Part shown: positions 67 through 50,678 of the stretch, in pieces
Numbering within the stretch: the stretch's first letter is position 1
Layout of the letters: each line of letters starts with the position of its first letter
The notes under the pieces: generated by a model
What the model saw: only the letters and a program-made list of their open reading frames with translations
Told to the model about the DNA's origin: nothing
Database searches by the model: none
Made by a program: the position numbers and the translations under genes
From: a virus
Taxonomy: Duplodnaviria > Heunggongvirae > Uroviricota > Caudoviricetes
Direction: 5' to 3' (one strand)
Virus record (IMG/VR): IMGVR_UViG_3300037261_000110
DNA length: 64,000 nucleotides

Positions 67-166
67 CGGTAAGGTGAAGGATTAACCTTACCCAGGATGG
101 TTAACGAGCGCCGTTAACCTTACCGAGTGTGGTTAACGGCGTTAACCTTACCCAGCATGGTTAACG
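67..166. repeat. Three tandem ~28-33 bp repeats, each with internal dyad symmetry (CGTTAACC-N11-GGTTAACG), preceded by a GGTAAGG/CCTTACC inverted repeat
   Basis: Seen directly: ttaaccttacccaggatggttaacg / cgttaaccttaccgagtgtggttaacg / cgttaaccttacccagcatggttaacg. Confidence 0.8.
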
Positions 167-190
167 TCGCCGCCTGGGCGCCAAAAACCC

Positions 191-260
191 GCGACTTAGG
201 CGGCGACTTAGGACCGGCGACTTAGGCGGCGACTTAGGATCACGATCGCCGCGACTTAGG
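191..260. repeat. Five direct copies of the 10-mer GCGACTTAGG at 12-22 bp spacing (iteron-like array)
   Basis: Seen directly: copies begin at 191, 203, 217, 229 and 251. Confidence 0.85.
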
Positions 261-566
261 ATCGCCAGCCGAAACCAAAATTGAATTGTCCAGCTCGAAT
301 TTTTAGCAAAAAATTGCTAGAAGCCAGCAAATTAGAAATCCATGCTACTTTCTCGTTGACTTAGCAAATTTTTCATGCTACGAAGCCTTCTGCCGACTGA
401 CCAAGCGCACCTGCTGGCACGAGATCAGTCGATGAGTCCCTGGTTAGCCGTGCCTCCTCACGGTGAGCTGCCTCTGATGCGGTGTTCATGACGCACCAGA
501 CGACTTCCGGGACGATCCTCAGCTCTCCGGCTGTACCTTTCTCGTTTGGTGCGGTCGGAGAGCTGA

Positions 567-622
567 CTTATCAGGTCATAGCTTGATTTATCATACGATT
601 TATCAGGTCACAGCCTGATTTT
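567..622. repeat. Two direct repeats TTATCAGGTCAyAGCyTGATTT, each with internal TCAGG/CCTGA dyad (operator-like)
   Basis: Seen directly in the sequence. Confidence 0.7.
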
Positions 623-708
623 TCGCCAAAATAGTAGATTAGAGCCTCATTTATACTATGATTGCCAATTGTTAATGAAAGCAACGCGCAAGTATAGCGC
701 AAGCAACA

Positions 709-805
709 CAAATTCATAAAAAGCGGACCCATCAAATTCATAAAAAACGGAGATGGGCTAAGTTTTTGGTTTTGCTGGCGATTTCGAGCTGGCAAATTCA
801 TAGAA
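709..805. repeat. Three copies of CAAATTCATA(A/G)AA; the first two extend to the 19-mer CAAATTCATAAAAARCGGA
   Basis: Seen directly; lies upstream of the small plus-strand ORF at 816. Confidence 0.7.
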
Positions 806-975
806 TGAGGAAACTATGAATTTTTTAGACTACTTGAACTACTATACGCAGAAATTGGCGTTACTTTCGTTCGGCTGGGAGGGATTTTTCACGATTCGGG
901 TCGATTCGCTCGCACACTGGACGAGCGCCTTATTCAACCAATCGGTTAAACGACCTATATTAGCGTTTGCTAATA

Positions 976-3879
976 CTATCTTAGCGGTCTACCGCGAAAA
1001 ATAGCCGTCATGATTGTAGGCTCCTCGAAGCCACGAGCGGCGATCTCCTTTTGAATTTGCTCAAGCCCGCCGATAAGGTTGCGAACTGGCGGTAATCCAA
1101 TATAATTTCGACCAGCCACTATACTTTTCGGTAAGGTACCGTCCTTTGGATTTGGCAAGGTACCTGCCTGAGAATCTGACAAGGTACCTGCTCCCTCAGA
1201 ATCTTTACGGTCCTCAGTCAGCTCTTGAAGCTTCGCCTCAACTTCCTTCCTCGCCTTTTCATTGTAGTTGCGAGAGCCAGCATAGCCGACGCCAGTCAGA
1301 CGCTTAGTACCGTACTTACGCTTCGGACGCGCCCAAGCGAGATATTGCGAAGTCGAGTCGCCCTGATCCTTGTACTTGGTCTCAGGCCAACCAAATATCT
1401 CAGCTTCATATTCTGCTAGCCACCCTGAATTCTCAGGTAGATGGACCAGATGCGCTTCCATCATTGGCGTCACACCATCCATGCGAAACTCTTTCGTAGC
1501 GTTATCAGTTGAGATAGCGATAACTGCACGCGGGCAATGTGGCGAGTTTGGATCGGATTGCTGCTGAATGTACTGAGTACCAGAACCCTTGTCTTCGACG
1601 AGAACACAATCCACATCTCTCAGCTCAGCAAGCTTGTTGAGCTTGTTTGCCATCTCAAAGAACTCCACACGCTTGCGGTAGACCTCGATCAAGTAGTGAT
1701 GGTTATCTTTAGTTTCATCCCAAATCGTTGCAACCGTATAAGCTGCACGCTCGTTGTTCTTGTTGGCAGTGTCGACTGACATAACACGACGCTTCACGTC
1801 TTTGCGCTCAGGACCGATGCGATAGCGTGTACTTGTGAACCATTCACGCTTGATGACGCCACCTTGCTCGTCGATCGGCTTGCCCATATACAAGCTGTTC
1901 CAATCCTTTGCGGATTGCTCAGACTTGATCTGCGCGAGAACATCTTTCGAAAAGAACTCAGGCCAAAGCGGATCACCAAACTGGCGTCCGATTGGATCGG
2001 GAACTGAATCGTCCAAGTAAATTGCCGGCAGGTTAATGATTTCCCAAGGGGCTCCATCGACCATACCTGCCTTGATCATCTTGTTTTCGGCCTCTAGGCG
2101 TCCGCAAAGATCGTCCGAATGCCAGCGCGTCGCCACTATGAACAGTGGAGCTTTGGGAAGCAGACGCGTAAGGTAGTCAGCCTTGAACCAAGCATAGGTT
2201 TTATTGCGGATCGTATCGGATTCCGCATCCTCTCTCGACGCAAATGGATCATCGACGCCAGCAAGATTAGTTCTGAAACCTGCAATTCCTTGTCCGACAC
2301 CACGTGTCAGATAAGCAGAGCCGTTATTTAGCACCCAATATCCGGCGGCGCGCGAAGCTGTGCTTAGCTGTATGTTCGGAAACACTTCAGCATAGCGATC
2401 AGACTCAATTATATCTCTGCACTTCTTACCAAATTCGTTCTCGACGAAGTTCTGGCTGTGTCCGGCTTGAAGATATTTCGTCTTTGGAGCAACACCCATC
2501 TTCCAGGTTGGAAATAAGCGCGAGGCATACGTCGAATTATGGGTTACAATATGTCCACGACCAACAAGAAACAAACCATCTTCGCGTTCGACAGTAATGC
2601 ATTGAGTCGATTGAGTTCCTTCAATCTTCTCGAACGAAATGTAACGTCCGTATTTACCTTCAAACTCAGTTGCACGACAGACCTTGCGCCATAGCTGAAA
2701 CGCACTCTTGAAGTAGAAAGACACGCGCCAATATTCACCGCAGTCTTTTCCGTTCAACATAGCACGTCCAGGGATGATTGAATTCTTCACCCCTAACGAA
2801 AACAGAAGTTCACTCACTGCGTCCCTCAAGCGAGAATTGGTTGAACAAAACGAACACTGTCCTGACGGCGAGACCGTTCCATCACTATCCATCAATCCTT
2901 GTAGAATTGATAAACGCACGTGATAAGAATTTCGAAGATACAGCTCAGGAACATGCTTATTGTTCAAGACACCAAGTGATACCAGATGCTTTCTAATGCC
3001 TAACAAACCAAATGCAGTCTTAGTTGTATGATCAGAAGTATGAACTCCGCACCATTCAATGCGCTCACGTACTTCCGGCTGATCCTTCACATCACATGTT
3101 ATTGTCGGTTGATCGGAATGCCCGTCGCCTAACCAATATCCAAGAACATAAGGATCAAGCGGAATCGTACGAGCCTTATATTCGACTGCTTCAAAATTTG
3201 GAAGTTTTGCACGGCGAGGAGATGTTCGATTGGCAAGATATTCAGTTGGATATGTCTTCCAATAATCACGCTTGCGATCTAATCGAACTGTCCACAAATG
3301 TTCCCCATCAACTAAAACAGCTTGTCCATCATCAGTGTATACACGATAGATTGTACGATTTTCAAACACCGGCGATTTTGCGATTATCTTAGTTGTTGTG
3401 CCGTCTGGTCCGTAAACCTTGTCACCGACTTTCAACTCAGCAATCGTTTTGTAACCGAGCGGAGTTGGAACCTTAGTATCCAGCACCATCGCTTTTGCAT
3501 GTCCTGGTGGCGCCGATATCATTAGACGCGAGTGCATTCCCTGTGACAAATCTGTCAGCTTATTCAGCATGAAGACATGCCAATCAGCCGGTGGTTCATC
3601 CGGAAAAATGTATTCACAATATGCAGTTAGGTCTTTTGGCGCGAGCTGAAGCAGAGCGCTCATGTACTCATTCGAAGTGCTTTCGTAAAGCTCTTCAAGT
3701 GCAATCAGCTGTTGCGCGGGATCGGTAGTACCTGTAAGTTCTATTATGAACTTAGTCTTTGTCGGCGTCAACATCGACTGACGTATCAGTGATGTTTCCA
3801 GCTCCGTCGCCACCATCTTCAGGTTCGTCAGTGACTTCCGTATCTGCTTGCGCGTCTTTTGCGAGATTATTTGCAGCAT
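976..3879 (-). CDS. terL: Terminase large subunit (TerL) interrupted by an in-frame intein. The extein N-terminus may start at the internal Met at 3816 or 3774
   Basis: Motifs: ATRWHSDDLCGRL, DGAPWEIINLP, FIVATRWH. A P-loop-like PPGHAK|S is split by about 319 aa that begin with a Hint block A and end in HN+S. Confidence 0.9.
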   Translation of the reverse strand: MLQIISQKTRKQIRKSLTNLKMVATELETSLIRQSMLTPTKTKFIIELTGTTDPAQQLIALEELYESTSNEYMSALLQLAPKDLTAYCEYIFPDEPPADWHVFMLNKLTDLSQGMHSRLMISAPPGHAKAMVLDTKVPTPLGYKTIAELKVGDKVYGPDGTTTKIIAKSPVFENRTIYRVYTDDGQAVLVDGEHLWTVRLDRKRDYWKTYPTEYLANRTSPRRAKLPNFEAVEYKARTIPLDPYVLGYWLGDGHSDQPTITCDVKDQPEVRERIEWCGVHTSDHTTKTAFGLLGIRKHLVSLGVLNNKHVPELYLRNSYHVRLSILQGLMDSDGTVSPSGQCSFCSTNSRLRDAVSELLFSLGVKNSIIPGRAMLNGKDCGEYWRVSFYFKSAFQLWRKVCRATEFEGKYGRYISFEKIEGTQSTQCITVEREDGLFLVGRGHIVTHNSTYASRLFPTWKMGVAPKTKYLQAGHSQNFVENEFGKKCRDIIESDRYAEVFPNIQLSTASRAAGYWVLNNGSAYLTRGVGQGIAGFRTNLAGVDDPFASREDAESDTIRNKTYAWFKADYLTRLLPKAPLFIVATRWHSDDLCGRLEAENKMIKAGMVDGAPWEIINLPAIYLDDSVPDPIGRQFGDPLWPEFFSKDVLAQIKSEQSAKDWNSLYMGKPIDEQGGVIKREWFTSTRYRIGPERKDVKRRVMSVDTANKNNERAAYTVATIWDETKDNHHYLIEVYRKRVEFFEMANKLNKLAELRDVDCVLVEDKGSGTQYIQQQSDPNSPHCPRAVIAISTDNATKEFRMDGVTPMMEAHLVHLPENSGWLAEYEAEIFGWPETKYKDQGDSTSQYLAWARPKRKYGTKRLTGVGYAGSRNYNEKARKEVEAKLQELTEDRKDSEGAGTLSDSQAGTLPNPKDGTLPKSIVAGRNYIGLPPVRNLIGGLEQIQKEIAARGFEEPTIMTAIFRGRPLR
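2536..3492 (-). mobile_element. Intein with a LAGLIDADG homing endonuclease domain, inserted in the TerL P-loop
   Basis: N-terminal block A-like (A)MVLDTKVPTPLGYKTIAELKVGDKV. Two LAGLIDADG motifs, LGYWLGDGH and LQGLMDSDG. C-terminus GHIVTHN followed by the +1 Ser. Confidence 0.8.
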
Positions 3880-5183: not shown

Positions 5184-5667
5184 ACTTCGTACATGCCATA
5201 CAACAACGTAAAAGTAAAGTAAAAGCACACATAGGGTCATTTTGGTTTGGTTCCCCACACCCTTCCGTGCGGGGCGCGAAAAGCTAAAAGAGCAACGTTC
5301 AAAAAGTAGTGTTTTTTAGCAAAAGCTAAGCTTTCTGCGGATGTGTCATAAAATCCACAACTTTTCGACCTACCACTTTTGGCCCCAAAACCCTTTATTT
5401 CTTTAGATAAGATCAATCAAAAGAATAAAAGAATAGTGGGAACCAGGAACACCAAACCAGTCAGGGTAAAACGCTTCGAAAAAATTTCTGTGCCTGAGCT
5501 GGTACAGTGAGACACCGGCGCAGATATTTGTGCCGGGCATTTTCCCCGCGACTGGTTCCGTGTTCCTCATTTACACTACGGTTTTTGAGCTTTCGTTGTA
5601 ATTCCAAGCCTTTTCACAACAATTTAATTGTTGATATTGACTTAATTGACCGTTTGTGCTGTACAGC

Positions 5668-5721
5668 TTGACAGAAGTCACTATTTGTGCTATCAACCGA
5701 CATCGCACAAATAGTGACTTC
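5668..5721 (+). promoter_or_regulatory. Sigma70-like promoter (TTGACA, 17 nt spacer, TATCAA) overlapped by a perfect 17-bp inverted repeat (GAAGTCACTATTTGTGC ... GCACAAATAGTGACTTC). A GAGGAA ribosome-binding site and the ATG at 5734 follow
   Basis: Seen directly; lies in the divergent intergenic region between the minus-strand packaging genes and the plus-strand early genes. Confidence 0.7.
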
Positions 5722-5733
5722 TGAGGAACCAAT

Positions 5734-6417
5734 ATGACTCTTTTCGTTAAAAACTTCGAGGAGCTGCACCAGAAGGTGCTCGACTTCGATCCGATCGTTG
5801 CCAATCGGCGCGGGCGTGTTGCGCTCCGTCTCAAGTTCTTTTGCGAGTTTGGCAACCGTAAAATCAGTGTTGGCGTTTATGCGCTCGCTAATGGAGCAAC
5901 CGAACGCAGGCGCTGTTACAACATCGCTGACGCCTTCAATTACCTCAATAAGTGTGGTGTTGAGCAAGATATACCAAAGGTCGAGCCCGGTCATGCAATT
6001 CAACCAGTCCGCAAAGTCAGGACCGGCAATAACGAGTTTGCCACGTCGGCGGTTGACAGAGCGATCTTGCTCAAGCCAATGCTGGACGCTTGGCACGATG
6101 GCGCACGCCGCCGCAACCCGCGCTTTCGCTACAATGGTGCAATTGAAACTCCTTGGGGAACAATCGATCTCGTTGGCTCTTACGATGGTAGGAAGCCACA
6201 TTTCGAATTTCAAGTGACTCGACAGGATACCTCGAAAAAGCTTCGTTACAGAGAAGACGAGCTGGAAAAGGCGTTCGGTGATCTATTCCGTGGCGCGAAT
6301 GGCGTCGAAGTCGAGACCTGGATTGAGCCGACTGACGATGATGTAAGCACCTATCCGAAGGCGGCGCGTTTTCCAACGATGCGCCCGAGCCGTAGAAGTC
6401 ACGCACATGAAAGCTAA
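5734..6417 (+). CDS. Hypothetical protein; first gene downstream of the operator-controlled promoter
   Basis: 227-aa ORF, RBS GAGGAA, no recognised motifs. Confidence 0.6.
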   Translation: MTLFVKNFEELHQKVLDFDPIVANRRGRVALRLKFFCEFGNRKISVGVYALANGATERRRCYNIADAFNYLNKCGVEQDIPKVEPGHAIQPVRKVRTGNNEFATSAVDRAILLKPMLDAWHDGARRRNPRFRYNGAIETPWGTIDLVGSYDGRKPHFEFQVTRQDTSKKLRYREDELEKAFGDLFRGANGVEVETWIEPTDDDVSTYPKAARFPTMRPSRRSHAHES

Positions 6418-8680: not shown

Positions 8681-8800
8681 ATGAAACATGAAATATTGAA
8701 GCTGCTGAAGCAGAAGATGTCAGTCAAAGAAATCGCTCAGATACTTGGTTTGTCTGAGTGGACCGTCGTCGCTTACATTGGAGTCAGGAAGCAATGTTAG
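8681..8800 (+). CDS. Miniature LuxR/GerE-type HTH protein (39 aa)
   Basis: LKLLKQKMSVKEIAQILGLSEWTVVAYIGVRK matches the LuxR C-terminal HTH consensus. Confidence 0.5.
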   Translation: MKHEILKLLKQKMSVKEIAQILGLSEWTVVAYIGVRKQC

Positions 8801-8882
8801 CTCGTCTTGGTTATCCCTTGGTTGGTATGTTTGGCATCGCCTGCGGAGTCCAGCCTCAGCACCATGCTTCAGTCGAGCCTGA

Positions 8883-9209
8883 TTGTATCCAGGCTCGCTG
8901 GTCTTCGTTTGTGTGCTCCTGATGCCACTCACAACGAACGACCCTGAGCCGCTGCACCCACGGGCTTCGGACCTCACCACGCGCGCAGATTGGGAGGAGC
9001 GCGCGACACAGGCGACGCCCAAGGCTGAGCTTGAGCGTCAGATCATGAGTTGGAACGTCCCGAAGAACGAACGCGAGTGGTGGGCGTTGCACGAAATCGA
9101 GCGCTTGCGTGAGATAGTTCGTCTTAAACGCCCGCATCCTGTTTACGGCTTGGCGATACTCATGGTCGTGATCGCCGCGCTTATCCTCTTTCGATTCTGG
9201 CAGGGCTAA
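8883..9209 (+). CDS. Hypothetical protein with a C-terminal TM anchor
   Basis: C-terminal LAILMVVIAALILFRFW. Confidence 0.4.
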   Translation: MYPGSLVFVCVLLMPLTTNDPEPLHPRASDLTTRADWEERATQATPKAELERQIMSWNVPKNEREWWALHEIERLREIVRLKRPHPVYGLAILMVVIAALILFRFWQG

Positions 9210-10400: not shown

Positions 10401-10679
10401 GCTCTACGGCGGTGATCTCGGACGGTTTGCAGAAGTTCTCGCGAGCTGCCTCGCCTACGCTGTCATAGCCCTGCTGGTCTGTCCACTTGATCACAGCTTG
10501 GAGCACGTCAGGCGCGGTCACGACGTGCTGCGGAGCTTCGCCGCAGTAGATTTGATATCGACGCATAGGTTGCTCCGGGGAAACCGCAGGCTCGGCTATC
10601 TCGGAAAAGGAGTCGAACCGAGTGGGCGCCCGCAGAGCATCCCTAAAACCGAACCTGCAACGAACGACATAGCCTGTAA

Positions 10680-11075
10680 CTAGCTCCTTGTCAAGGCCCG
10701 AAATAGTTCTCTCATGGAGTCTTCGGTAAAATCCGGACGGCGGCGTGCTTCGTTGCGCTCGCGAAGGACGCGCCGCATGAGTATGTTGACGTGATTGCTG
10801 AGATTGGTGGCTATCTTGGGAATTGCTGTGTCCTTAACCGTATGATCAGGAGGGATAGCCAGGGCGGCGATGCCGGCGGCGACCACATTGAGGGCATTGG
10901 CGATGTCGACGCGAGTGGAACCGCGCTCGTGTTCGTCGTGGACCCAACTCTCCGCTGTCTCGACGATGCCGGTGGCGAGTAAGCGTCCGAGAGCGCGTTT
11001 GCTAGCGTGTTCGTGAAGCAATAAGTCGTCGATCATCGCTTGGTCGACAAAGCCGGGGGTATGCGCGTCGGTCAT
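10680..11075 (-). CDS. Hypothetical protein in a minus-strand islet
   Basis: 131-aa ORF with a strong RBS (GAGGAGGAAAC ATG). Confidence 0.5.
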   Translation of the reverse strand: MTDAHTPGFVDQAMIDDLLLHEHASKRALGRLLATGIVETAESWVHDEHERGSTRVDIANALNVVAAGIAALAIPPDHTVKDTAIPKIATNLSNHVNILMRRVLRERNEARRRPDFTEDSMRELFRALTRS

Positions 11076-11280
11076 GTTTCCTCCTCTCGTCTTGCATCGC
11101 GTGTAGGATCGCGACCTGTGCCTGGGGTGCTTCTGACTCCGACCATGCTAGCGCTTGTCGGAGGATTGCCAAAGCCTTTTCTGGATCGTTTTCTTCGAGC
11201 ACATCAGTGAGCGCTCGGCGAGTCCAACTGCCTTCGGATACGTCCGCCATGATTTTCTGGATAGCTGCCCGCGTGTTCAT
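11002..11280 (-). CDS. Hypothetical protein; overlaps the downstream minus-strand gene by 74 nt
   Basis: 92-aa ORF. Confidence 0.4.
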   Translation of the reverse strand: MNTRAAIQKIMADVSEGSWTRRALTDVLEENDPEKALAILRQALAWSESEAPQAQVAILHAMQDERRKHDRRAYPRLCRPSDDRRLIASRTR

Positions 11281-12550: not shown

Positions 12551-12992
12551 ATATCTGTCGCGACTGTCTGTACTACGGCGAAGGGTATCCAGGCTCGCCG
12601 GAGTGTTTCCATCCTGTCGCAACAACCAGCGTCGCGGCTTATATCGATCCGGTCACGGGAGAGCCGCACCAAGCGTCTAAATGGCAGTCGAGCTGTTACC
12701 TGATGCGTTTGCATTCTCACCAGTGTGGTCCAGCCGGACTGCTTTTTGCGCCGGCTAGGCATGCGTAGAGGGTTCGAACGATCTAGTAGACCCTGGCGCC
12801 TTCGTGGATCGTTTGATGATCGATCTCGTACATTCCTAGCCGACGAATCGGTGTAGCATGTGGAGAGGACTAAACGCAAGCGGCTTCGGCCGCTTTTTGT
12901 TAACTATTTGCGAATTTGGCTCTTGCATTTGCCTCCACGATCATGCATCTATTGGTGCAGAAAGAGTTACGAACATCGCGAAAGGAGTTCAG

Positions 12993-13250
12993 ATGCAAGC
13001 GTTCACCGAAGTCGATTGGACTCTGTGCGCGAAGTCCATTCTCAAGTCCAAAATGAAGCGGCGAGGCTTCACGTACATCGATCTAGCCGAGCGGCTTACT
13101 TCTCTCGGTGGCAAGAAGGAGACTGACGCCAATCTGCGGAATAAGGTTAGTCGCGGAACATTTACGGCGGCGTTTTTCCTTCAGTGCCTTGTCGCGATGA
13201 ACGTCAGAACGCTTCTGATCGACGAAGACATGGAGGTTGAACGTGACTGA
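12993..13250 (+). CDS. HTH DNA-binding protein
   Basis: Perfect RBS AAAGGAG; the HTH guess rests on RRGFTYIDLAERLTSLGGKKETDANLRNKVSRGT. Confidence 0.5.
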   Translation: MQAFTEVDWTLCAKSILKSKMKRRGFTYIDLAERLTSLGGKKETDANLRNKVSRGTFTAAFFLQCLVAMNVRTLLIDEDMEVERD

Positions 13251-21427: not shown

Positions 21428-21670
21428 ATGCCACATCATAGTGGAGACAGGCGAACGCTGCTGAAACAGCTGACGCAGCTCGCCGACGAAATGGGAGCGA
21501 TCAAGGTTGATAAGATTCGGCTTAAGGATCACGACGCGCTCGACGTGGTATTGTCGAACAAAGCGAAGTTCCGATTCATCTGCAATCCGAATCCTATGAA
21601 CCGATTGAACAATCTCCTTCAGTTCAAGCGCAAGGTTCGGGAGTTAACTATTCCAACATCTATGGCTTGA
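21428..21670 (+). CDS. Hypothetical protein
   Basis: RBS GGGAGGATAAA ATG. Confidence 0.45.
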   Translation: MPHHSGDRRTLLKQLTQLADEMGAIKVDKIRLKDHDALDVVLSNKAKFRFICNPNPMNRLNNLLQFKRKVRELTIPTSMA

Positions 21671-22017
21671 CGAAAATCCCGAGTTCGCGTACATTCTCAA
21701 ATAGACCCAACGAGCGGAAACCCAAGAAGCCCGCAAGTCATCCAGGGATAAGCCACACCAGCGGGTCGCAACGTGGCACTTTGATTGGAATTGCAATGCC
21801 TTGGACTAACGGAAAAGGAGTGGTGATTTCTGACGAAAAGGGCTGGACTCAGTTCGCGAATCAGTATGTCATCAAGCTCAAGAAATGGGGTGGCGGAGTC
21901 AAACACAGCGGTGGTGCCGGGCGTACTTCGCGTGGGTATCACGCAATAATGAGAGCGCTCGCCGATATTGGTGTGGCAGCGCGCAAGGCACAGAGGCAGA
22001 AGAAGGAAAGGAACTAG
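21667..22017 (+). CDS. Hypothetical basic, Gly-rich protein
   Basis: 116-aa ORF. Confidence 0.4.
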   Translation: MTKIPSSRTFSNRPNERKPKKPASHPGISHTSGSQRGTLIGIAMPWTNGKGVVISDEKGWTQFANQYVIKLKKWGGGVKHSGGAGRTSRGYHAIMRALADIGVAARKAQRQKKERN

Positions 22018-23994: not shown

Positions 23995-24373
23995 CTATAG
24001 CAATACATTCGGGTTGCTATTTTTCTGAGTTGGCGTACATTTCAAGCAACGAAAGGAGCCAAAGAAATGTGCAACGCATACGAGTTGATCCCTGGTCGCA
24101 ATCCCGACTCGATCTGGTGGCGGGATTGGAACGATGCGCCGGCTGAGATACCGCCGCGAGCGCAGAAGACCGCGAAGACGCGCGAGCGTGAGCGGGAGAT
24201 CACCATCCTCAACCGGGATTGGCAGCGGTCATGAGCCCGTTCGAAGAAGCTCTCGACGATCTGATCAACAAGTATCTCGGCGACATGGACGAAATCATCT
24301 CGGTCTTGGAGCTGAAGGTGATGGCGCTCAAGGAAGAGCAAAGACATGCCAATGACGGCGATCGGGAGGGCGC

Positions 24374-30329: not shown

Positions 30330-30416
30330 CGCTTGCTATGTTAACCATATTGTGTTAGCGGTTTTTCTCGAAAAAGCGAATGAACTCGAAAATTTTCGTT
30401 TCAAAGGAAAACCAAA

Positions 30417-30962
30417 ATGACCGCAAAGAAAATTTCTGTATCGTCGTCGGCTAACAGGTACGGTGGTCTTCCAGACAAGCTCTGGCAGATGCTGTCTCTC
30501 GCGCTCGACGATTTAGCTGCGGTCGAGAAGATGAAGGATAAGTACGTCGTTCGCATGGACATATGGTACATGCACGGCTATGTCAATGAAGCCGTGCGCG
30601 TGGCTAATCGTCCAGATTCTTTCGAGAAATACGACGACTTCATGGCAAAGCCGACAGAGATTTGCGGAATCTGTTTTGCCGGCGCTGTCATGGCTTGCAC
30701 ACTCGGCGACGGTCCTGATGATCTTCAGCCAGAAGATTTTCCCGAGTTTATCAAGTGCAAGCTTAAGGCTTGTGATATGGCTCGCGGCGGCGGCATGGAA
30801 ACGACGCTCAATACCTTTTACGGTAATTGGGATTGGGACCCGGATTCAAGCAAAACCAGAAAGCTGAAGAATGTTGTCGTGCCAGCGTATGATCGCGATC
30901 GCGCCGGCTTCAAGCGCGGGATTAACACAATGATCAAGCAGTTAAAGGCAGTGGACCTTTAG
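30417..30962 (+). CDS. Hypothetical protein
   Basis: 181-aa ORF. Confidence 0.55.
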   Translation: MTAKKISVSSSANRYGGLPDKLWQMLSLALDDLAAVEKMKDKYVVRMDIWYMHGYVNEAVRVANRPDSFEKYDDFMAKPTEICGICFAGAVMACTLGDGPDDLQPEDFPEFIKCKLKACDMARGGGMETTLNTFYGNWDWDPDSSKTRKLKNVVVPAYDRDRAGFKRGINTMIKQLKAVDL

Positions 30963-32560: not shown

Positions 32561-32693
32561 AGCCATACAGTGAAAAAGCGTAAAATCAAATCACCTACAG
32601 CCTTCTTGCGCGCGGTGGAGAAGAGGATGCACCATAATCGCGCCATTTCGTCGAGACAGTTTTACACTAGGAAGGGAGCCAATAGGCACGCAA

Positions 32694-32951
32694 ATGACAA
32701 AAATTCATGACACGCCATACACGTTCGCCGGCATGCCGGTGGTCGTCCACGAAGCCAAGATCGTTACGCGCACCTGGAAGGAACGCCTGTTTTCTCGCCC
32801 CTGGCGTCCGTTTCGAAACTTCAAAATCGTTCCGCCAGCAATCCCGGATGGACAGGTTTTTCGTGTGGTTGACACATGGCATATGACTGTTGTCACCTGG
32901 AATAACCTTATGAGAGAGCTTGAGAGGGTTCCTCGAACCTTGGAAATGTGA
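32694..32951 (+). CDS. Hypothetical protein
   Basis: 85-aa ORF. Confidence 0.45.
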   Translation: MTKIHDTPYTFAGMPVVVHEAKIVTRTWKERLFSRPWRPFRNFKIVPPAIPDGQVFRVVDTWHMTVVTWNNLMRELERVPRTLEM

Positions 32952-33081
32952 ACGAACTCAGGAATCCTGTCATTTCGAGATTATTTTTCGAAAAGCCTTT
33001 ACATCTTGGTTAATAAATGCTATCTAGCCGAAAGTTGACGCGAACACTCGCGCCTTTTGGTAACAATCACAAGGAAAATCC

Positions 33082-33813
33082 ATGCGTCTGACTCCCCAAG
33101 ACATACTCGATTCACCAGAAATCACAGAACCCGCCATTCTCATTTTTAAGAGCGGCGCTGAGATTCTGGTGGATGATTTGTCACCCGTTCAAGATGACGA
33201 GACTGACAACTTCGTTGCCGACGACTTCGGCTATTGTCGCATGGTAGCGATCGATGAAGCAGGTGCTGTCCTGGTTTTTGACAGTGACGCTCTCGAATCG
33301 ATCACATTCAGCCCCAAAGACAGCGCCGCCATCATCGGCGACGAGTATGTCGAGCAGGGCGCTTCAGGTGAAGCAACGCTCGGCTATGCCGATTCGGCGC
33401 CTCCCATGTACGCCGACAACGGTGGCTTCGACGAAGACGAGTACATTGGTCCGGACGCCGATCCCGATGGCTATATCGACGAAGCGGACTTCGCCAATCT
33501 CGTCAAGCTCGGTTTGAGCGACATCGACGATAACGATGGCGAGGGCGAGGAATACGTCGTTGGTGGCTTCCGCGAAGACAACGGAATGCCGTACGCTCTC
33601 ACGGTCACGATGTTTGATCCCTTGACCGGCGAGGAAGTCGAGATGCCGGCGGAGCTTACGGCGGTCCTCGATTCCATGTTCCTCGGCCTCGGCGGCGAGA
33701 ATATCCCCGACAACGGCTTCCTGGACCCGTCAGCGCAAGCTGGTGCCGGCGTCGGCGACCATCATGCTCGCATGTCCGTTGAAGGCGCCGACACATGGCT
33801 GGATCGCTCCTAA
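33082..33813 (+). CDS. Highly acidic (Asp/Glu-rich) protein; candidate DNA mimic
   Basis: 243 aa with very high D/E content throughout. Confidence 0.6.
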   Translation: MRLTPQDILDSPEITEPAILIFKSGAEILVDDLSPVQDDETDNFVADDFGYCRMVAIDEAGAVLVFDSDALESITFSPKDSAAIIGDEYVEQGASGEATLGYADSAPPMYADNGGFDEDEYIGPDADPDGYIDEADFANLVKLGLSDIDDNDGEGEEYVVGGFREDNGMPYALTVTMFDPLTGEEVEMPAELTAVLDSMFLGLGGENIPDNGFLDPSAQAGAGVGDHHARMSVEGADTWLDRS

Positions 33814-43338: not shown

Positions 43339-43665
43339 GGTATATCCTCAAGAGGTAGTGAACGATAACGTGTCCTCCGGAGGCTTACGCGCGGTTGACG
43401 CCATCAATTCCTGTTGGTGTGAACTTGCCTTGATAGCATGATAACTTGAAATAAGCAAAGGTTTTATTAGTGACCCTAAGCTTGACACAAGTTGTTGTGG
43501 TTCACTGGAAGGCAAGCCACAGGAAAAAGAGAAACAGAGGAATGAGTAACACCAAAAATAAAGCTAGTCGTCGACCAGCTGCTTGCCTGTTGTCCGAAAT
43601 ATGTGGTACTTTTCGGTCAACGTATTTCTCTGTCACAATAGGGCCGATATAAGGCGGTTCTGTCG

Positions 43666-45051: not shown

Positions 45052-45322
45052 GTGACTCCCCTTTTCACTTTTGCTAGACGAAATGTAAGAAAAGGTGGGC
45101 GGGAATCAAGCGATTTGAGTTCTTGTGGTTAACTGCTCCCTGGTTGTTGGCGGGGCGGGTAAATGTGTCGTCCAATTCCATGCACGGGGCAGTTTTTGTT
45201 GAGATAGAAAAGCAGCTTACCGTGCTGGTCGAAGTAGCAAACAGACTGGTCTTTCGTCGTATTAGGACAGATGCAGTCGGCGCCTCCGTTGTTTTGAATG
45301 TCAATCAGAAGATCATCGATGG

Positions 45323-47171: not shown

Positions 47172-48248
47172 CTATTCTTTCTCTTTCGCTTGCGGTTGAT
47201 GTTCTACTTCAATCGCTTGGATGATTTTGGAGCTGGTATTGCCTGCACCTACGGCTACGTTTACCGTACTTATTTTGTTCTCTTGAGAAAGAACTTTGAG
47301 GGTCACACGGTCGCCTGTGTCCAGGACAAAGATGTGATTTGGAAGGTCATCTTCTTCGACGAGCGGGAAAGGCGAATTGGTGAACTTGGTAGAGACTTCG
47401 AGAATCCTGTCACCAACCTTAGCCTTACCCTTCAGCACTGAGTCCGGCAGGATTTCCTTAATAAGCATACCAACGCCTTCCGGTGATGGCGTGTACGAGA
47501 CGCCAAGCCGAGGCCAGACGATTTTCTTGGTGTCCTGATGGAGATCGCGGATGACTTTCTCGACGATTTCACTCGGGATCGCGAACGGAATCGAGCCGCC
47601 TTGAACGACTTTGATCATGTTGTTGATGCCGACAACCTGTCCCGCCATATTGAAGAGAGGACCGCCGCTGTTGCCATTGGTGATACGTAGATCGGACTGC
47701 ATGTAGTAAACCGGCGACAGCGGCTCTATCTTGCGATAGGAAGCCGAGAGGTAGCCATGCGTCATTGTCCACGTCAGCTCGACGGGCATGCCGATCGCCC
47801 ACACTTCGTCGCCCACCTTCAGATCGGAGGCTGGTGCGAAGCGAAGAATCTTGTACGGTACTTCTTTTCTGAATTTCTGCCAATCGTCCACGCGGAGCTG
47901 GGCAACATCCGCCAGCACGTCAGCGCCGACGACCGTCGCCTGATACCATTTCGTGCTTTTCTTAGTCCTGATGCGCAGCTGGTCTGCCTTCTGCATTCCC
48001 TCGATGACGTGCGCGTTGGTCGTGATCATCCCGGAATCGTCACTGAAAAACCCGGTTCCGACAGCGGTTCCCTGCTGTCCGGTTGCTGGATCAACCGTGC
48101 CGCCGGCTTCAATGAAAACGACGCCTTCCATTGTGCGGTCGACGAGATTGGGGAAGTCATTTCCGAAAATGTAAGAATTTCCGAGGAGCACGAGGAGGGA
48201 AACGCAGCTGATAAGCGTTATCAGCAAAGGGCGAAGCTGGATTTTCAT
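47172..48248 (-). CDS. HtrA/DegP-family (S1C) serine protease with a signal anchor and a PDZ domain
   Basis: His (TTNAHVI), Asp (DVAQLRV), Ser (TNGNSGGPLF) and a PDZ segment (GKAKVGDRILEV). Confidence 0.8.
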   Translation of the reverse strand: MKIQLRPLLITLISCVSLLVLLGNSYIFGNDFPNLVDRTMEGVVFIEAGGTVDPATGQQGTAVGTGFFSDDSGMITTNAHVIEGMQKADQLRIRTKKSTKWYQATVVGADVLADVAQLRVDDWQKFRKEVPYKILRFAPASDLKVGDEVWAIGMPVELTWTMTHGYLSASYRKIEPLSPVYYMQSDLRITNGNSGGPLFNMAGQVVGINNMIKVVQGGSIPFAIPSEIVEKVIRDLHQDTKKIVWPRLGVSYTPSPEGVGMLIKEILPDSVLKGKAKVGDRILEVSTKFTNSPFPLVEEDDLPNHIFVLDTGDRVTLKVLSQENKISTVNVAVGAGNTSSKIIQAIEVEHQPQAKEKE

Positions 48249-48413
48249 AATTTGTGGCCTTTCCGGCTTTTTGGATAATGCTCGCATTAACCTAAATTGT
48301 CAATCGAAAAATAATGTGAACGAACTCGGGAATTTTTGGCGGTGTACGATCTCGCTTGACAAATCGAAGAAATTGTAGCATGAATCTGGCGAAAGATAGG
48401 AAAACAGGTAGAG

Positions 48414-50678
48414 ATGAAAATAGAGACCGCCGAGAGAGTAGCCGAGTTTGCTGGTTTTCTTGAAGAGAAAAGCTTCACGATAGCAGCAAACGGTAAAGCT
48501 TTTCGGGTCCTCATTGATAAACTTTACTCAAACGTTCATCAAGCTATTGTACGCGAGCTGATGACGAATGCTTGGGATGCGCATGTTTCGGCGGCAAATC
48601 TAAAACCTTTCGAAATTCACGTGCCGACAGCGTTTGAGCCCTTCTTTTCTATTCGTGACTTCGGCTGTGCAATGACTCACTCAGAAGTCATGAACGTCTA
48701 CTCGACGATATTCGAGTCAACCAAGGATGCTCGTGACGATCAGGTCGGCGCCTGGGGCCTTGGCTCAAAAACACCTTTCGCCTACACTGACACTTTTGGC
48801 GTGCAAGTCTGGCTAGATGACCGCCATAGGGTGTATAATGTCTTCATAGATGCGACCGGTGTCCCAAAAATCGCCCTGGCGCTCGACGAAGAGAATGACG
48901 GTGCCGCGAACGGCGTTGAGGTATCCTTTCCAGTCGGTGTCAAAGATGCCGGTCTTTTTCGAACCGCGCTCGAAGTGGTTAGCATTGGCTTCGAAGTCAA
49001 GCCAAAATTTTCTGGTTCGCTCAATGTTCTGGAATTAGAGAAGCGTCGTCAAGGTGCTGGCTGGTTCACGTTCGTCTATTCCAGTGGACCAACATGGTTG
49101 AAAAAGCCGGTTGCTCGGGTCGGCTGCGTCCTCTATCCGATCAAGCTGGACGTGGTGTGTGATCTCATAAGAGACAAAGCGACGAAGCCAGAGTGCTGGC
49201 AGCTTTTGTCCAGCGTGCATGGTTTTCCGGGCACGCCAATGATCCTCGATTTCCCAATTAGCTCGATCGAAGTCACAGCCAATCGTGAAGACTTATACTA
49301 TTCGGAACGAACTGTCAAGTCTATTGTTGATAGATTCGAGACAATCGTTCAGGAAATGAAAGCTGAGTTTTTAGCTAATATCAAGAAAGGCAAGACTCTC
49401 TATGAAGTGAATATGGAAGTCCTCGAAGTCTGCGAGATGTTCGCCGACGTTGCCTCTGGCGTCTCTAGCTATCTCCGTGATTTTGCTCGGCAACAGAGCT
49501 TCAAAGGACGAAAGCTTCTTCACAAAATCGTTTTTCGACATAGATACAAAACGGTTGAGGAAAAGAACGCTGCCGGTGAGGCAGTCATTTATCGAGTTCC
49601 GACTCGTTACAATAGCATTCAATTCGTCTACTATCTAGGCTCGAAATTCATTCGTCAACCAGGACTGCAATTCTGTGATTCTGAGGAAATGTCTTGGACT
49701 CCGCGTGTTACCGACTTCTTCGTTGAGCTGCCGGGCGAAAAGGGTAAGCGCGTGCCGTACGCTGCTCGCCGCATTCGTCACGAGCGCAACGAAGCCGGCA
49801 CGACCGTGCGCCACGATCTTATGTGGATCAAGACACCCTCACTCTCGGACCCTCACTTCGTAAAAATGTGGATCGGGCTCGGGCGCCCGCCTTATAAACT
49901 GGTCAACGATCTGGTGAGACCGCCGGGCATTCCGACCGAGCGCTATATAACCCCGATGCGCATTTATAATTCGAATGCAGATACGTGGGAAAGGTATGAC
50001 GATTTCGACGTTGAGAATGACGCCGGGTTTTATGTGATGCTCAACTGCGGGCTTCCGGAGCATATAAAGAGCGTGAAGCTCTGCGATCTGATCGGATTTC
50101 TGGAATCAAAGCGCGCGATCCACAATGCCCGTCATATCATTGGCATCCCAAAGAGCCGCAAGTCAGTTCTCTCAAAATCCGATCAATGGATTGACATGGT
50201 TCCCGTCCTTAAAGCAGCCTACCGCAAAGCGCTCAACGTGAAGCAGGCAGCGGTCAGTTTCAGTGTTAAAGAGATCACAATCGACAAAGGGGATCAAGGC
50301 ACGTTAGAAAGATTGAACCGCAAGCTTGGTAGGTTTGATCCGGCGTCGCCGTTCGTTCAAGCGATTAAAGCCTATGATCGGTTGGGAGCGATTGAGGCGA
50401 CAGCTGCCGAATTTAAGAGTGCCTGGAATCATCGATGGGTGCTTGATTATGAGGAGCGTGCGAAGCTCGACGAAGAATACAACGCGCTCGCCAAAAGTGA
50501 CCCGGCGCTGGTTTCTGAGATTGGCTCTATCAAGTCTGCCATCGAAGGTGTTTTTCAAGCCTATCCTTTACTGCAAAAAGTGCCATATCCCGATCAAGAT
50601 GCTTTGAAAGCACTCGACGACTATATTGTAGCGATGGACTGTTTTAGAGGGGCGCTTGCTAGTGGCTTACAAAAATAA
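48414..50678 (+). CDS. rIIA: rIIA-like protein (GHKL ATPase-domain protein)
   Basis: FRVLIDKLYSNVHQAIVRELMTNAWDAH matches the T4 rIIA N-terminus (VVRELITNMIDAH); also GAWGLGSKTPF. Confidence 0.8.
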   Translation: MKIETAERVAEFAGFLEEKSFTIAANGKAFRVLIDKLYSNVHQAIVRELMTNAWDAHVSAANLKPFEIHVPTAFEPFFSIRDFGCAMTHSEVMNVYSTIFESTKDARDDQVGAWGLGSKTPFAYTDTFGVQVWLDDRHRVYNVFIDATGVPKIALALDEENDGAANGVEVSFPVGVKDAGLFRTALEVVSIGFEVKPKFSGSLNVLELEKRRQGAGWFTFVYSSGPTWLKKPVARVGCVLYPIKLDVVCDLIRDKATKPECWQLLSSVHGFPGTPMILDFPISSIEVTANREDLYYSERTVKSIVDRFETIVQEMKAEFLANIKKGKTLYEVNMEVLEVCEMFADVASGVSSYLRDFARQQSFKGRKLLHKIVFRHRYKTVEEKNAAGEAVIYRVPTRYNSIQFVYYLGSKFIRQPGLQFCDSEEMSWTPRVTDFFVELPGEKGKRVPYAARRIRHERNEAGTTVRHDLMWIKTPSLSDPHFVKMWIGLGRPPYKLVNDLVRPPGIPTERYITPMRIYNSNADTWERYDDFDVENDAGFYVMLNCGLPEHIKSVKLCDLIGFLESKRAIHNARHIIGIPKSRKSVLSKSDQWIDMVPVLKAAYRKALNVKQAAVSFSVKEITIDKGDQGTLERLNRKLGRFDPASPFVQAIKAYDRLGAIEATAAEFKSAWNHRWVLDYEERAKLDEEYNALAKSDPALVSEIGSIKSAIEGVFQAYPLLQKVPYPDQDALKALDDYIVAMDCFRGALASGLQK

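Follow-up and report, generated by a model that had tools for sequence, protein, structure and literature searches.

Introduction

What role, if any, is played by a 21-nucleotide sequence that occurs almost unchanged at two distant places in a phage genome, one upstream of a gene for an acidic protein (locus 1) and the other between the divergent genes for a trypsin-like protease and rIIA (locus 2)? An earlier note on this DNA had offered three answers: a binding site shared by a regulator, a phage-specific promoter element, or a processing signal. We have examined these and other possibilities by looking for additional copies of the sequence, by comparing the same two loci in related phages, and by determining how the copies are placed with respect to promoter-like sites.

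The stretch of 64,000 nucleotides that was analysed, referred to here as the window, is part of a 152.9-kb metagenomic contig (ENA ERZ28655145) of an uncultured peat phage, which we call phage W. Terminase genes occupy the left end of the window on the minus strand; a long series of small plus-strand genes extends from 5.7 to 40 kb, and is followed at 40.5-48.2 kb by a minus-strand block encoding a primase-helicase, a tyrosine recombinase of 196 residues and the trypsin-like protease. The genes for rIIA, rIIB and replication functions lie 3' of this block on the plus strand. The rIIA protein of W is approximately 33% identical to that of phages of roughly 150 kb from Ruegeria, Rhodobacter and Sphingobium, and the gene order near rIIA resembles that of the Ruegeria phage RpAliso; no relatives were found in IMG/VR with either the rIIA protein or the rIIA profile. 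A small tyrosine recombinase is encoded near rIIA also in RpAliso (10493-11218 of its locus) and in relative R described below (5357-5941 of its locus). A 197-nt indel at about 39.8-40.3 kb distinguishes the 152.9-kb contig from the window, with which other assemblies agree at this place; the W population is otherwise clonal over every region compared.

Results

The 21-mer pair

The sequence AATGTGAACGAACTCRGGAAT is present at 32945-32965 (copy W1) and 48313-48333 (copy W2) on one strand, with 20 of 21 positions identical, exactly as the earlier note had reported. These are the only two matches in the window with 3 mismatches or fewer, and none was obtained in 100 dinucleotide-preserving shuffles. 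The similarity between the copies stops at the edges of the 21-mer, the flanks being unrelated, and when the 43 intergenic segments of the window (7.8 kb) were compared all against all, the two copies emerged as the strongest repeat at long range. The 21-mer is identical in 9 independent assemblies at locus 1 and 5 at locus 2, and thus it is not an assembly artefact; as every assembly is identical at both loci, strain variation is uninformative with respect to constraint.

The distance of about 80-130 nt from the copies to the start codons was also given correctly: W1 ends 116 nt before the ATG of the acidic-protein gene at 33082, and W2 ends 80 nt before the ATG of rIIA at 48414. The statement that both copies are intergenic holds for W2, which is located in the 165-nt gap between the protease ATG (48248, minus strand) and the rIIA ATG, but for W1 it holds only in part, since bases 5-7 of this copy are the TGA stop (32949-32951) of the ORF at 32694-32951. 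The positions of the copies, of the genes around them and of other features discussed below are collected in Table 1.

Table 1. Copies of the 21-mer, neighbouring genes, promoter-like sites (all consensus readings) and repeat arrays in the window.
Feature	Position	Strand	Sequence and remarks
Copy W1	32945-32965	+	AATGTGAACGAACTCAGGAAT; includes the TGA stop of ORF 32694-32951; ends 32 nt before the -35-like TTTACA of the acidic-protein gene
Copy W2	48313-48333	+	AATGTGAACGAACTCGGGAAT; between divergent promoter-like sites; ends 22 nt before the plus-strand -35 TTGACA
Copy W3	21675-21695	-	AATGTACGCGAACTCGGGATT; inverted; 17/21, 0.05 expected by chance
Copy W1'	30373-30393	+	AAAGCGAATGAACTCGAAAAT; 16/21, 0.27 expected; upstream of gene 30417-30962
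Possible copy W4	24021-24041	-	AATGTACGCCAACTCAGAAAA; 15/21 to the 21-mer (chance level alone), 17/20 to W3
85-aa ORF	32694-32951	+	cut short by the TGA inside W1
Acidic-protein gene, 243 aa	33082-33813	+	pI 4.05, 57 D+E; downstream of W1
Trypsin-like protease gene	47172-48248	-	divergent from rIIA
rIIA gene	48414-50678	+	PHROG RIIA, E 1.6e-95; downstream of W2
Small tyrosine recombinase gene, 196 aa	43666-44256	-	Phage_integrase, E 3.6e-26
39-aa ORF, bare helix-turn-helix	8681-8800	+	weak GerE, HTH_23, HTH_Tnp_ISL3; PDB 8vd6 'CAP repeat', E 5.9e-12
Acidic-gene promoter-like site	32998-33026	+	TTTACA-17-TATCTA, TGC before it
T-tract	32980-32991	+	ATTATTTTTCGA; just before the acidic-gene -35; resembles an UP element
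Protease-operon promoter-like site	48275-48303	-	TTGACA-17-CATTAT, 10/12; -35 kept in 4/4 phages
rIIA promoter-like site	48356-48384	+	TTGACA, then block conserved with R, AATTGTAGCATGAATC; -10 assignment uncertain
Direct-repeat array	82-166		TTAACCTTACCCAGGATGGTTAACG x3
Direct-repeat array	187-238		GCGACTTAGG units
Direct-repeat array	565-624		GAYTTATCAGGTCAYAGC x2
Direct-repeat array	709-811		CAAATTCATAAAAAGCGGA x3

Further copies in the window

A mismatch scan, with expected counts calculated from a Markov null, recognized two more copies (W3 and W1') and a possible third (W4). Copy W3 is located in a 125-nt intergenic region 3' of the gene that ends at 21670, and on the plus strand it fills the spacer and the -10 of a promoter-like TTGACG-17-TACATT. 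Copy W1' begins 11 nt past the -10-like TAGCGG of the promoter-like site TTGCTA-17-TAGCGG. The possible copy W4, which is not conserved in relative R, occupies the spacer and -10 of a TTGCTA-16-TACATT upstream of an ATG at 24067. The all-against-all intergenic comparison independently pairs 21677 with 48314, 30378 with 48318, and 21677 with 24023, and all three additional copies fall in intergenic DNA according to external gene calls, and such DNA represents 11% of the window. The sequence on either side of the window (4.3 kb on the left, 9.9 kb on the right) contributes no further copy, so that the total is 4-5 copies in the approximately 78 of the 153 kb of the W genome that were scanned. 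The earlier note had recommended such a scan, and had considered two lone copies with no relation to transcription starts as a result contrary to its proposal; the scan instead yields more than two copies and, as far as can be judged from consensus readings, the extra ones appear to adjoin promoter-like sites.

Outside phage W, no near-identical DNA for the window was found in the phage collection and the exact 21-mer is absent from IMG/VR. The degenerate pattern AATGTNNNCGAACTCRGGA, which is too loose, gave single chance matches in metagenome and genome collections, none of them, among the matches listed, less than 2 mismatches from the 21-mer. Pattern scans also retrieved GGAATGTTSACGAACTCGGGAATGTTSA from many unrelated bacterial contigs, several of them from Acidobacteria; with its period of 18 nt this sequence looks like a coding repeat unrelated to the phage.

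Matched pairs in related phages

Relatives were sought with rIIA, the acidic protein and the Band_7 protein, and only three related metagenomic phages were recovered, each with both loci: R (Logan SRR21686420_9822, a 56.7-kb contig; rIIA 69% identical), S (SRR29078125; rIIA 52% identical) and T (SRR21686414; rIIA 53% identical). The gene order Band_7, short ORF, acidic protein is kept in all three, as is the divergent protease/rIIA pair. The 21-mer itself is absent from R, S and T. In R, a different sequence, the 12-mer TCAGGATTCTCG, is present at both orthologous loci (12/12), and it recurs, inverted, just past the -10-like site that precedes the R ortholog of window gene 30417. The sequence common to the two loci of S is ATTCTCNNTATTCTCCG (15/17). 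We compared the 160 nt upstream of the acidic-protein gene with the protease/rIIA intergenic region of the same phage by local ungapped alignment on the same strand, using 400 shuffles for the statistics. The similarity between the two loci is significant in W (p<0.0025) and S (p<0.0025), and in R (p~0.015), while no significant pair is recognized in T by this same-strand test. RpAliso was considered as a further test of the pair and set aside as not comparable, because the gene that follows its prohibitin gene is not an ortholog of the acidic-protein gene.

The W, R and S versions of the motif overlap at CTCRGGAWT, and at locus 1 this core is aligned by MAFFT in the three phages; W3 (21.7 kb) and W1' (30.4 kb) also have TTTTCG in common after the core. 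Over 29 nt anchored on the core, the copies within W share 17-21 positions with each other, versus 11-16 with the orthologous copies of R and S, and the three R copies share 15-20 positions. At the level of sequence this pattern, in which copies within a genome are more alike than orthologous copies, is one of concerted evolution: since identity within genomes exceeds identity between orthologs, the sites stay matched in each genome while the lineages diverge. Coding constraint may contribute to the conservation at locus 1, as in R and S the element is in the coding tail of the upstream ORF.

Placement with respect to promoter-like sites

All promoter assignments in this study are readings of a sigma70-like consensus, and two of them fail the rule of the scan itself; the acidic-gene site fails because position 6 of its -10 is not T. 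The TTTACA ... TGCTA of this site is kept in all 4 phages. T-rich tracts before the -35, of a kind that resembles UP elements, are general among the promoter-like sites of W. The 12-mer T-tract of locus 1 recurs inverted at 48304-48315, directly upstream of the minus-strand (protease) -35, which is separated from W2 by nine bases (48304-48312), and the two W loci also have GGTTAAT in common in their promoter spacers.

The gap between the end of the core and the plus-strand -35 is 32 and 22 nt at the two loci of W, and 39 and 19 nt at those of R. W1' and its counterpart in R lie about 10 nt past a -10-like site, in opposite orientations, and the locus-2 copy of S is in the spacer of a TTGACA-18-ATATAG. 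The element is thus found before the -35, inside a promoter-like spacer, or just past the -10, and in both orientations. If the consensus readings are right, it is always in a promoter region, without a fixed place or orientation. The conserved sigma70-like promoter is distinct from the 21-mer.

History of copy W1

The short-ORF protein of R (104 aa), when compared to the window by tblastn, aligns without a change of frame across the TGA at 32949-32951 and past it; the S ortholog has 131 aa. Reading on in the W frame after this TGA (region 32694-33023) yields ..SFRDYFSKSLYILVNKC, a C-terminal extension that can be aligned with those of the R and S proteins (..NSLYN..C), and the truncation of the 85-aa ORF looks recent on this comparison. 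For the 5' half of the 21-mer, AATGTGAACGA, the only counterpart is AAATGGTTGAC at locus 2 of S; locus 1 lacks one in R, S and T alike. The simplest history would be that sequence of the locus-2 type was written over locus 1 in the W lineage, truncating the ORF, and this event would explain why W1 and W2 are identical at 20 of 21 positions. Overwriting alone leaves the matched pairs of R and S unexplained.

RNA structure and known signals

The suggestion that the repeat might be a processing signal finds no support. No fold exceeds that of shuffled sequences (z 0.15 to 1.87 for three copies on both strands), the element has no match in Rfam, and the window contains no tRNA; moreover, W2 is upstream of both divergent promoter-like sites and thus would not be transcribed from them, which makes a role at the RNA level unlikely at this locus. 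A nut-like RNA site for antitermination was rejected likewise, given the position of W2 and the lack of a hairpin.

Several known DNA signals were compared to the element by their consensus sequences and discarded: the alphaproteobacterial LexA box GAAC-N7-GAAC (wrong spacing), Sigma54 GG-N10-GC (absent), an ECF-type promoter GAAC-N16-CGTC (no consistent -10), the DnaA box (a 6/8 match only), the IHF site (no core present), and the P4 ori iteron TGTTCACC (a single GTTCAC match only). A minus-strand ORF at 32667-32882 was also discarded as a target for the element read in reverse: its translation looks non-coding, and the plus-strand ORF has orthologs.

Discussion

A putative operator of early genes

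The explanation that best accommodates these results, and to which we would assign an even chance of being correct, is that the 21-mer is an operator for a sequence-specific regulator, probably encoded by the phage, that controls a small regulon of early genes. We rank it first because the copies are noncoding and in promoter regions, occur in both orientations, accompany several early genes, and come in lineage-specific matched versions. That the copies face either way with respect to the downstream gene is also more easily reconciled with DNA binding than with a promoter or a signal in RNA. Among the three proposals of the earlier note, a shared regulator-binding site therefore appears to be the best fit to the extra intergenic copies, the matched pairs of the relatives and the promoter-like sites nearby. 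As a cis-element the 21-mer is genuine, conserved and specific to the lineage; its kind is an ordinary one, and it does not call for a new class of mechanism.

The putative operator would join a few early promoter regions: those of the acidic-protein gene, of the protease/rIIA pair, of gene 30417, and of one or two accessory genes near 21.7-24 kb. It would be an asymmetric element of approximately 21-26 bp, apparently composed of two tandem units about 9 bp apart (GAACTC .. GAATYY), a layout that would suit a protein contacting two successive turns of the helix. The exact copies appear to be upstream of the -35 of conserved sigma70-like promoters, while the degenerate ones would overlap or directly follow promoter-like sequences; with such varied placement the effect of one regulator could differ from promoter to promoter. 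Activation or auxiliary binding is suggested by the upstream sites, and repression by those that cover or follow the core promoter; equally, the protein could be a repressor that has auxiliary sites upstream. The repeat is observed directly, as are its additional copies in noncoding DNA, the pairs matched within the relatives and the absence of RNA structure, whereas binding by a protein, the identity of that protein, the sign of the regulation and every transcription start are inferred.

The protein that would read the site is more likely phage-encoded than a host factor, because the version of the motif is particular to each phage and agrees between the loci of that phage. A search for regulator genes yielded only a DUF6471 protein (12858-13250) and the 39-aa helix-turn-helix at 8681-8800, which is the sole recognized DNA-binding fold among the early ORFs; no homolog of the latter was found in the stretches of the relatives that were examined, and we mention it as a speculative candidate for the reader of the 21-mer. 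No RNA polymerase, sigma or AraC family is included among the 25 families listed of the 44 Pfam families matched by the 105 ORFs of the window, and the annotation of the 115 kb examined of the syntenic Ruegeria phage RpAliso includes neither a polymerase nor a sigma factor.

Some observations do not sit easily with an operator. An identity of 20/21, which includes positions that a regulator need not contact, is above what is usual for operators, and could reflect recent copying; the placement of the element relative to the promoter-like sites is variable by our readings, and phage T has no significant pair in the same-strand test. If an operator is indeed present, the acidic protein, rIIA/rIIB, the secreted-type protease operon and a few orphan genes would form a small co-regulated early set, in which the acidic protein is possibly an anti-defence factor, and the regulator could be sought with the 21-mer and its lineage-specific variants. 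The way in which both sites have changed together within each related phage would then provide a clean, small example of a site coevolving with its reader, or of two sites coevolving with each other.

Comparison with known systems

The 'stoperators' of mycobacteriophages are asymmetric operators of 12-14 bp present in about 20-30 copies per genome, and the p4 sites of phi29 are another example of an operator with a small regulon. As in these systems, a short, near-identical sequence recurs in the intergenic regulatory DNA of one phage, is lineage-specific, and changes presumably together with its reader; unlike stoperators, the 21-mer has 4-5 copies in 78 kb rather than 20-30, mixed orientation, and a variable position with respect to promoters. 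The marbox of MarA/SoxS/Rob is a 20-bp asymmetric activator site for monomeric regulators with two helix-turn-helix motifs, located upstream of the -35 or overlapping it, in either orientation. The 21-mer is similar in length (about 20 bp), in being non-palindromic, and in having two recognition units on successive helical turns, but it has no sequence resemblance to the marbox and an AraC-family protein is missing from the Pfam families listed; the comparison concerns how the 21-mer may work, not membership in this class.

T4-type phages contain about 50 PeSL (promoter-early stem-loop) cassettes per genome (PMC2839356, PMC4122927). In W too there are repeats in the intergenic regions of early genes, the promoters have a T-rich tract before the -35, and some of them follow terminator hairpins. 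The 21-mer differs from PeSL cassettes in having no stem-loop and only 4-5 copies, and in that the -35/-10 hexamers are 22-32 nt outside of it and differ between the two loci.

Alternative explanations

In place of an operator, the element could itself be part of a promoter, in either orientation. In one version a polymerase or transcription factor specific to the phage would recognize it as a contiguous promoter, directed on the plus strand toward the acidic-protein gene and rIIA; in the other, its reverse complement, ATTCCYGAGTTCGTTCACATT, would supply the spacer and the -10 (YACATT) of a special class of sigma70-type promoters. We consider this unlikely, while recognizing that a good deal can be said for it. 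Promoters of T7-type single-subunit polymerases are contiguous, asymmetric and near-identical, and diverge in step between related phages, all of which is true also of the 21-mer with its approximately 21 bp, and the six main instances of the element (W, R and S at two loci each) are co-oriented with the downstream gene. In the reverse reading, -35-like hexamers are found 16-17 nt before YACATT at three copies (TTGACG at 21667, TTGCTA at 24015, ATGACA at 32972-32977), and the chance of two 5/6 matches among five copies is estimated at roughly 0.002-0.01, before allowing for the number of readings tried. Against these points, the 78 kb scanned have only 4-5 copies; W3, W4 and the inverted copy of R would be antisense in the plus-strand reading, W3 and that same R copy being inverted relative to the flanking genes, and W1 would be antisense in the reverse reading; the YACATT part is missing from the R copies; a conserved, host-type sigma70-like promoter already stands between the element and each gene; and a polymerase or sigma factor is lacking among the families listed for the window and in the annotation of the 115 kb of RpAliso examined. 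The phage-specific promoter element of the earlier note thus appears weaker than an operator in view of the few copies, the mixed orientation and the families listed. Somewhat further down in probability, and quite unlikely in our opinion, is a 20/21 identity without function, produced by ectopic recombination or gene conversion between short similar sequences of the promoter regions, which would have copied a patch from locus 2 to locus 1. The match of the 5' half at locus 2 of S only, the in-frame TGA that truncates the ORF at locus 1 and looks recent, and the inverted 12-mer and GGTTAAT that are also common to both loci, are all consistent with copying, and recombination between the repeated promoter cassettes of T4-type phages is documented (PMC2839356, PMC4122927). 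What copying fails to explain is why W, R and S, each with a sequence of its own, all have matched copies at these two loci, and why additional copies are found in other promoter regions; a copying event and a functional site are, in any case, mutually compatible.

Two further possibilities concern proteins of a different origin or function. A host DNA-binding protein, for example a regulator of the CRP/FNR type, is very improbable as the reader of the site, although the 21-mer begins with AATGTGA, which contains a perfect CRP-type half-site (TGTGA), followed by 6 bases and TCRGG, so that the 5-6-5 layout and the length fit the consensus TGTGA-N6-TCACA, and the two sites, measured from their centres to the plus-strand -35, are offset by 10 bp. 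In the right half, TCRGG agrees with the consensus at just 2-3 of 5 positions; neither the R and S copies nor W3 contain TGTGA, and it is the other end that is conserved across phages; furthermore, the site of a host factor would be expected to remain constant in related phages rather than change in step in each genome. We regard it as most improbable of all that W1 and W2 are recombination sites for the small tyrosine recombinase, flanking a 15.4-kb segment (primase-helicase, early genes) that would be excised or amplified as a circle, with the R- and S-type pairs also serving as targets. The direct repeats do flank the recombinase gene, in R this segment has the R-type repeats on either side, and the need for identical crossover regions would explain a pair that changes in step. 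Opposed to this are the lack of dyad symmetry in the 21-mer, with short inverted repeats in the flanks that differ between the copies and are out of register; the distance of the gene from the copies (4 kb from one, 10.7 kb from the other); the existence of extra copies elsewhere, some of them inverted; and the loss of replication genes that excision would entail. Normal junctions are present in 22 of 22 contigs with the acidic-protein gene and 16 of 16 with the protease gene, and no deletion or circle junction was seen, with the proviso that assemblies hide minor variants.

Other features of the window

The region next to the terminase genes (1-975) contains the four short direct-repeat arrays of Table 1, and could be a packaging or replication-origin region. 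The adjacent large terminase ORF (976-3879, minus strand, 967 aa) has a LAGLIDADG_3 match (E 2.2e-5) between the N- and C-terminal terminase domains, which may represent an intein; in two assemblies the gene calls for this protein are 945 and 932 aa long. At 5672-5723 there is a near-perfect inverted repeat with 22-nt arms, 95% complementary and 8 nt apart, whose first arm is the spacer of a TTGACA-17-TATCAA upstream of the ORF at 5734-6417; its appearance is that of a leader hairpin or a large operator. Another intergenic repeat, weaker than the 21-mer pair (AAGTTGTTGTGGTTCACTGG and its partner), is found in the two gaps of the minus-strand operon (43489-43508 and 45117-45136), with 2 mismatches in the best 18-nt window, and GATTGTATCCAGGCTCGCTGGTCT occurs at 8881-8904 and about 12581-12604, again with 2 mismatches in the best 18-nt window, probably in small paralogous coding sequences rather than regulatory DNA.
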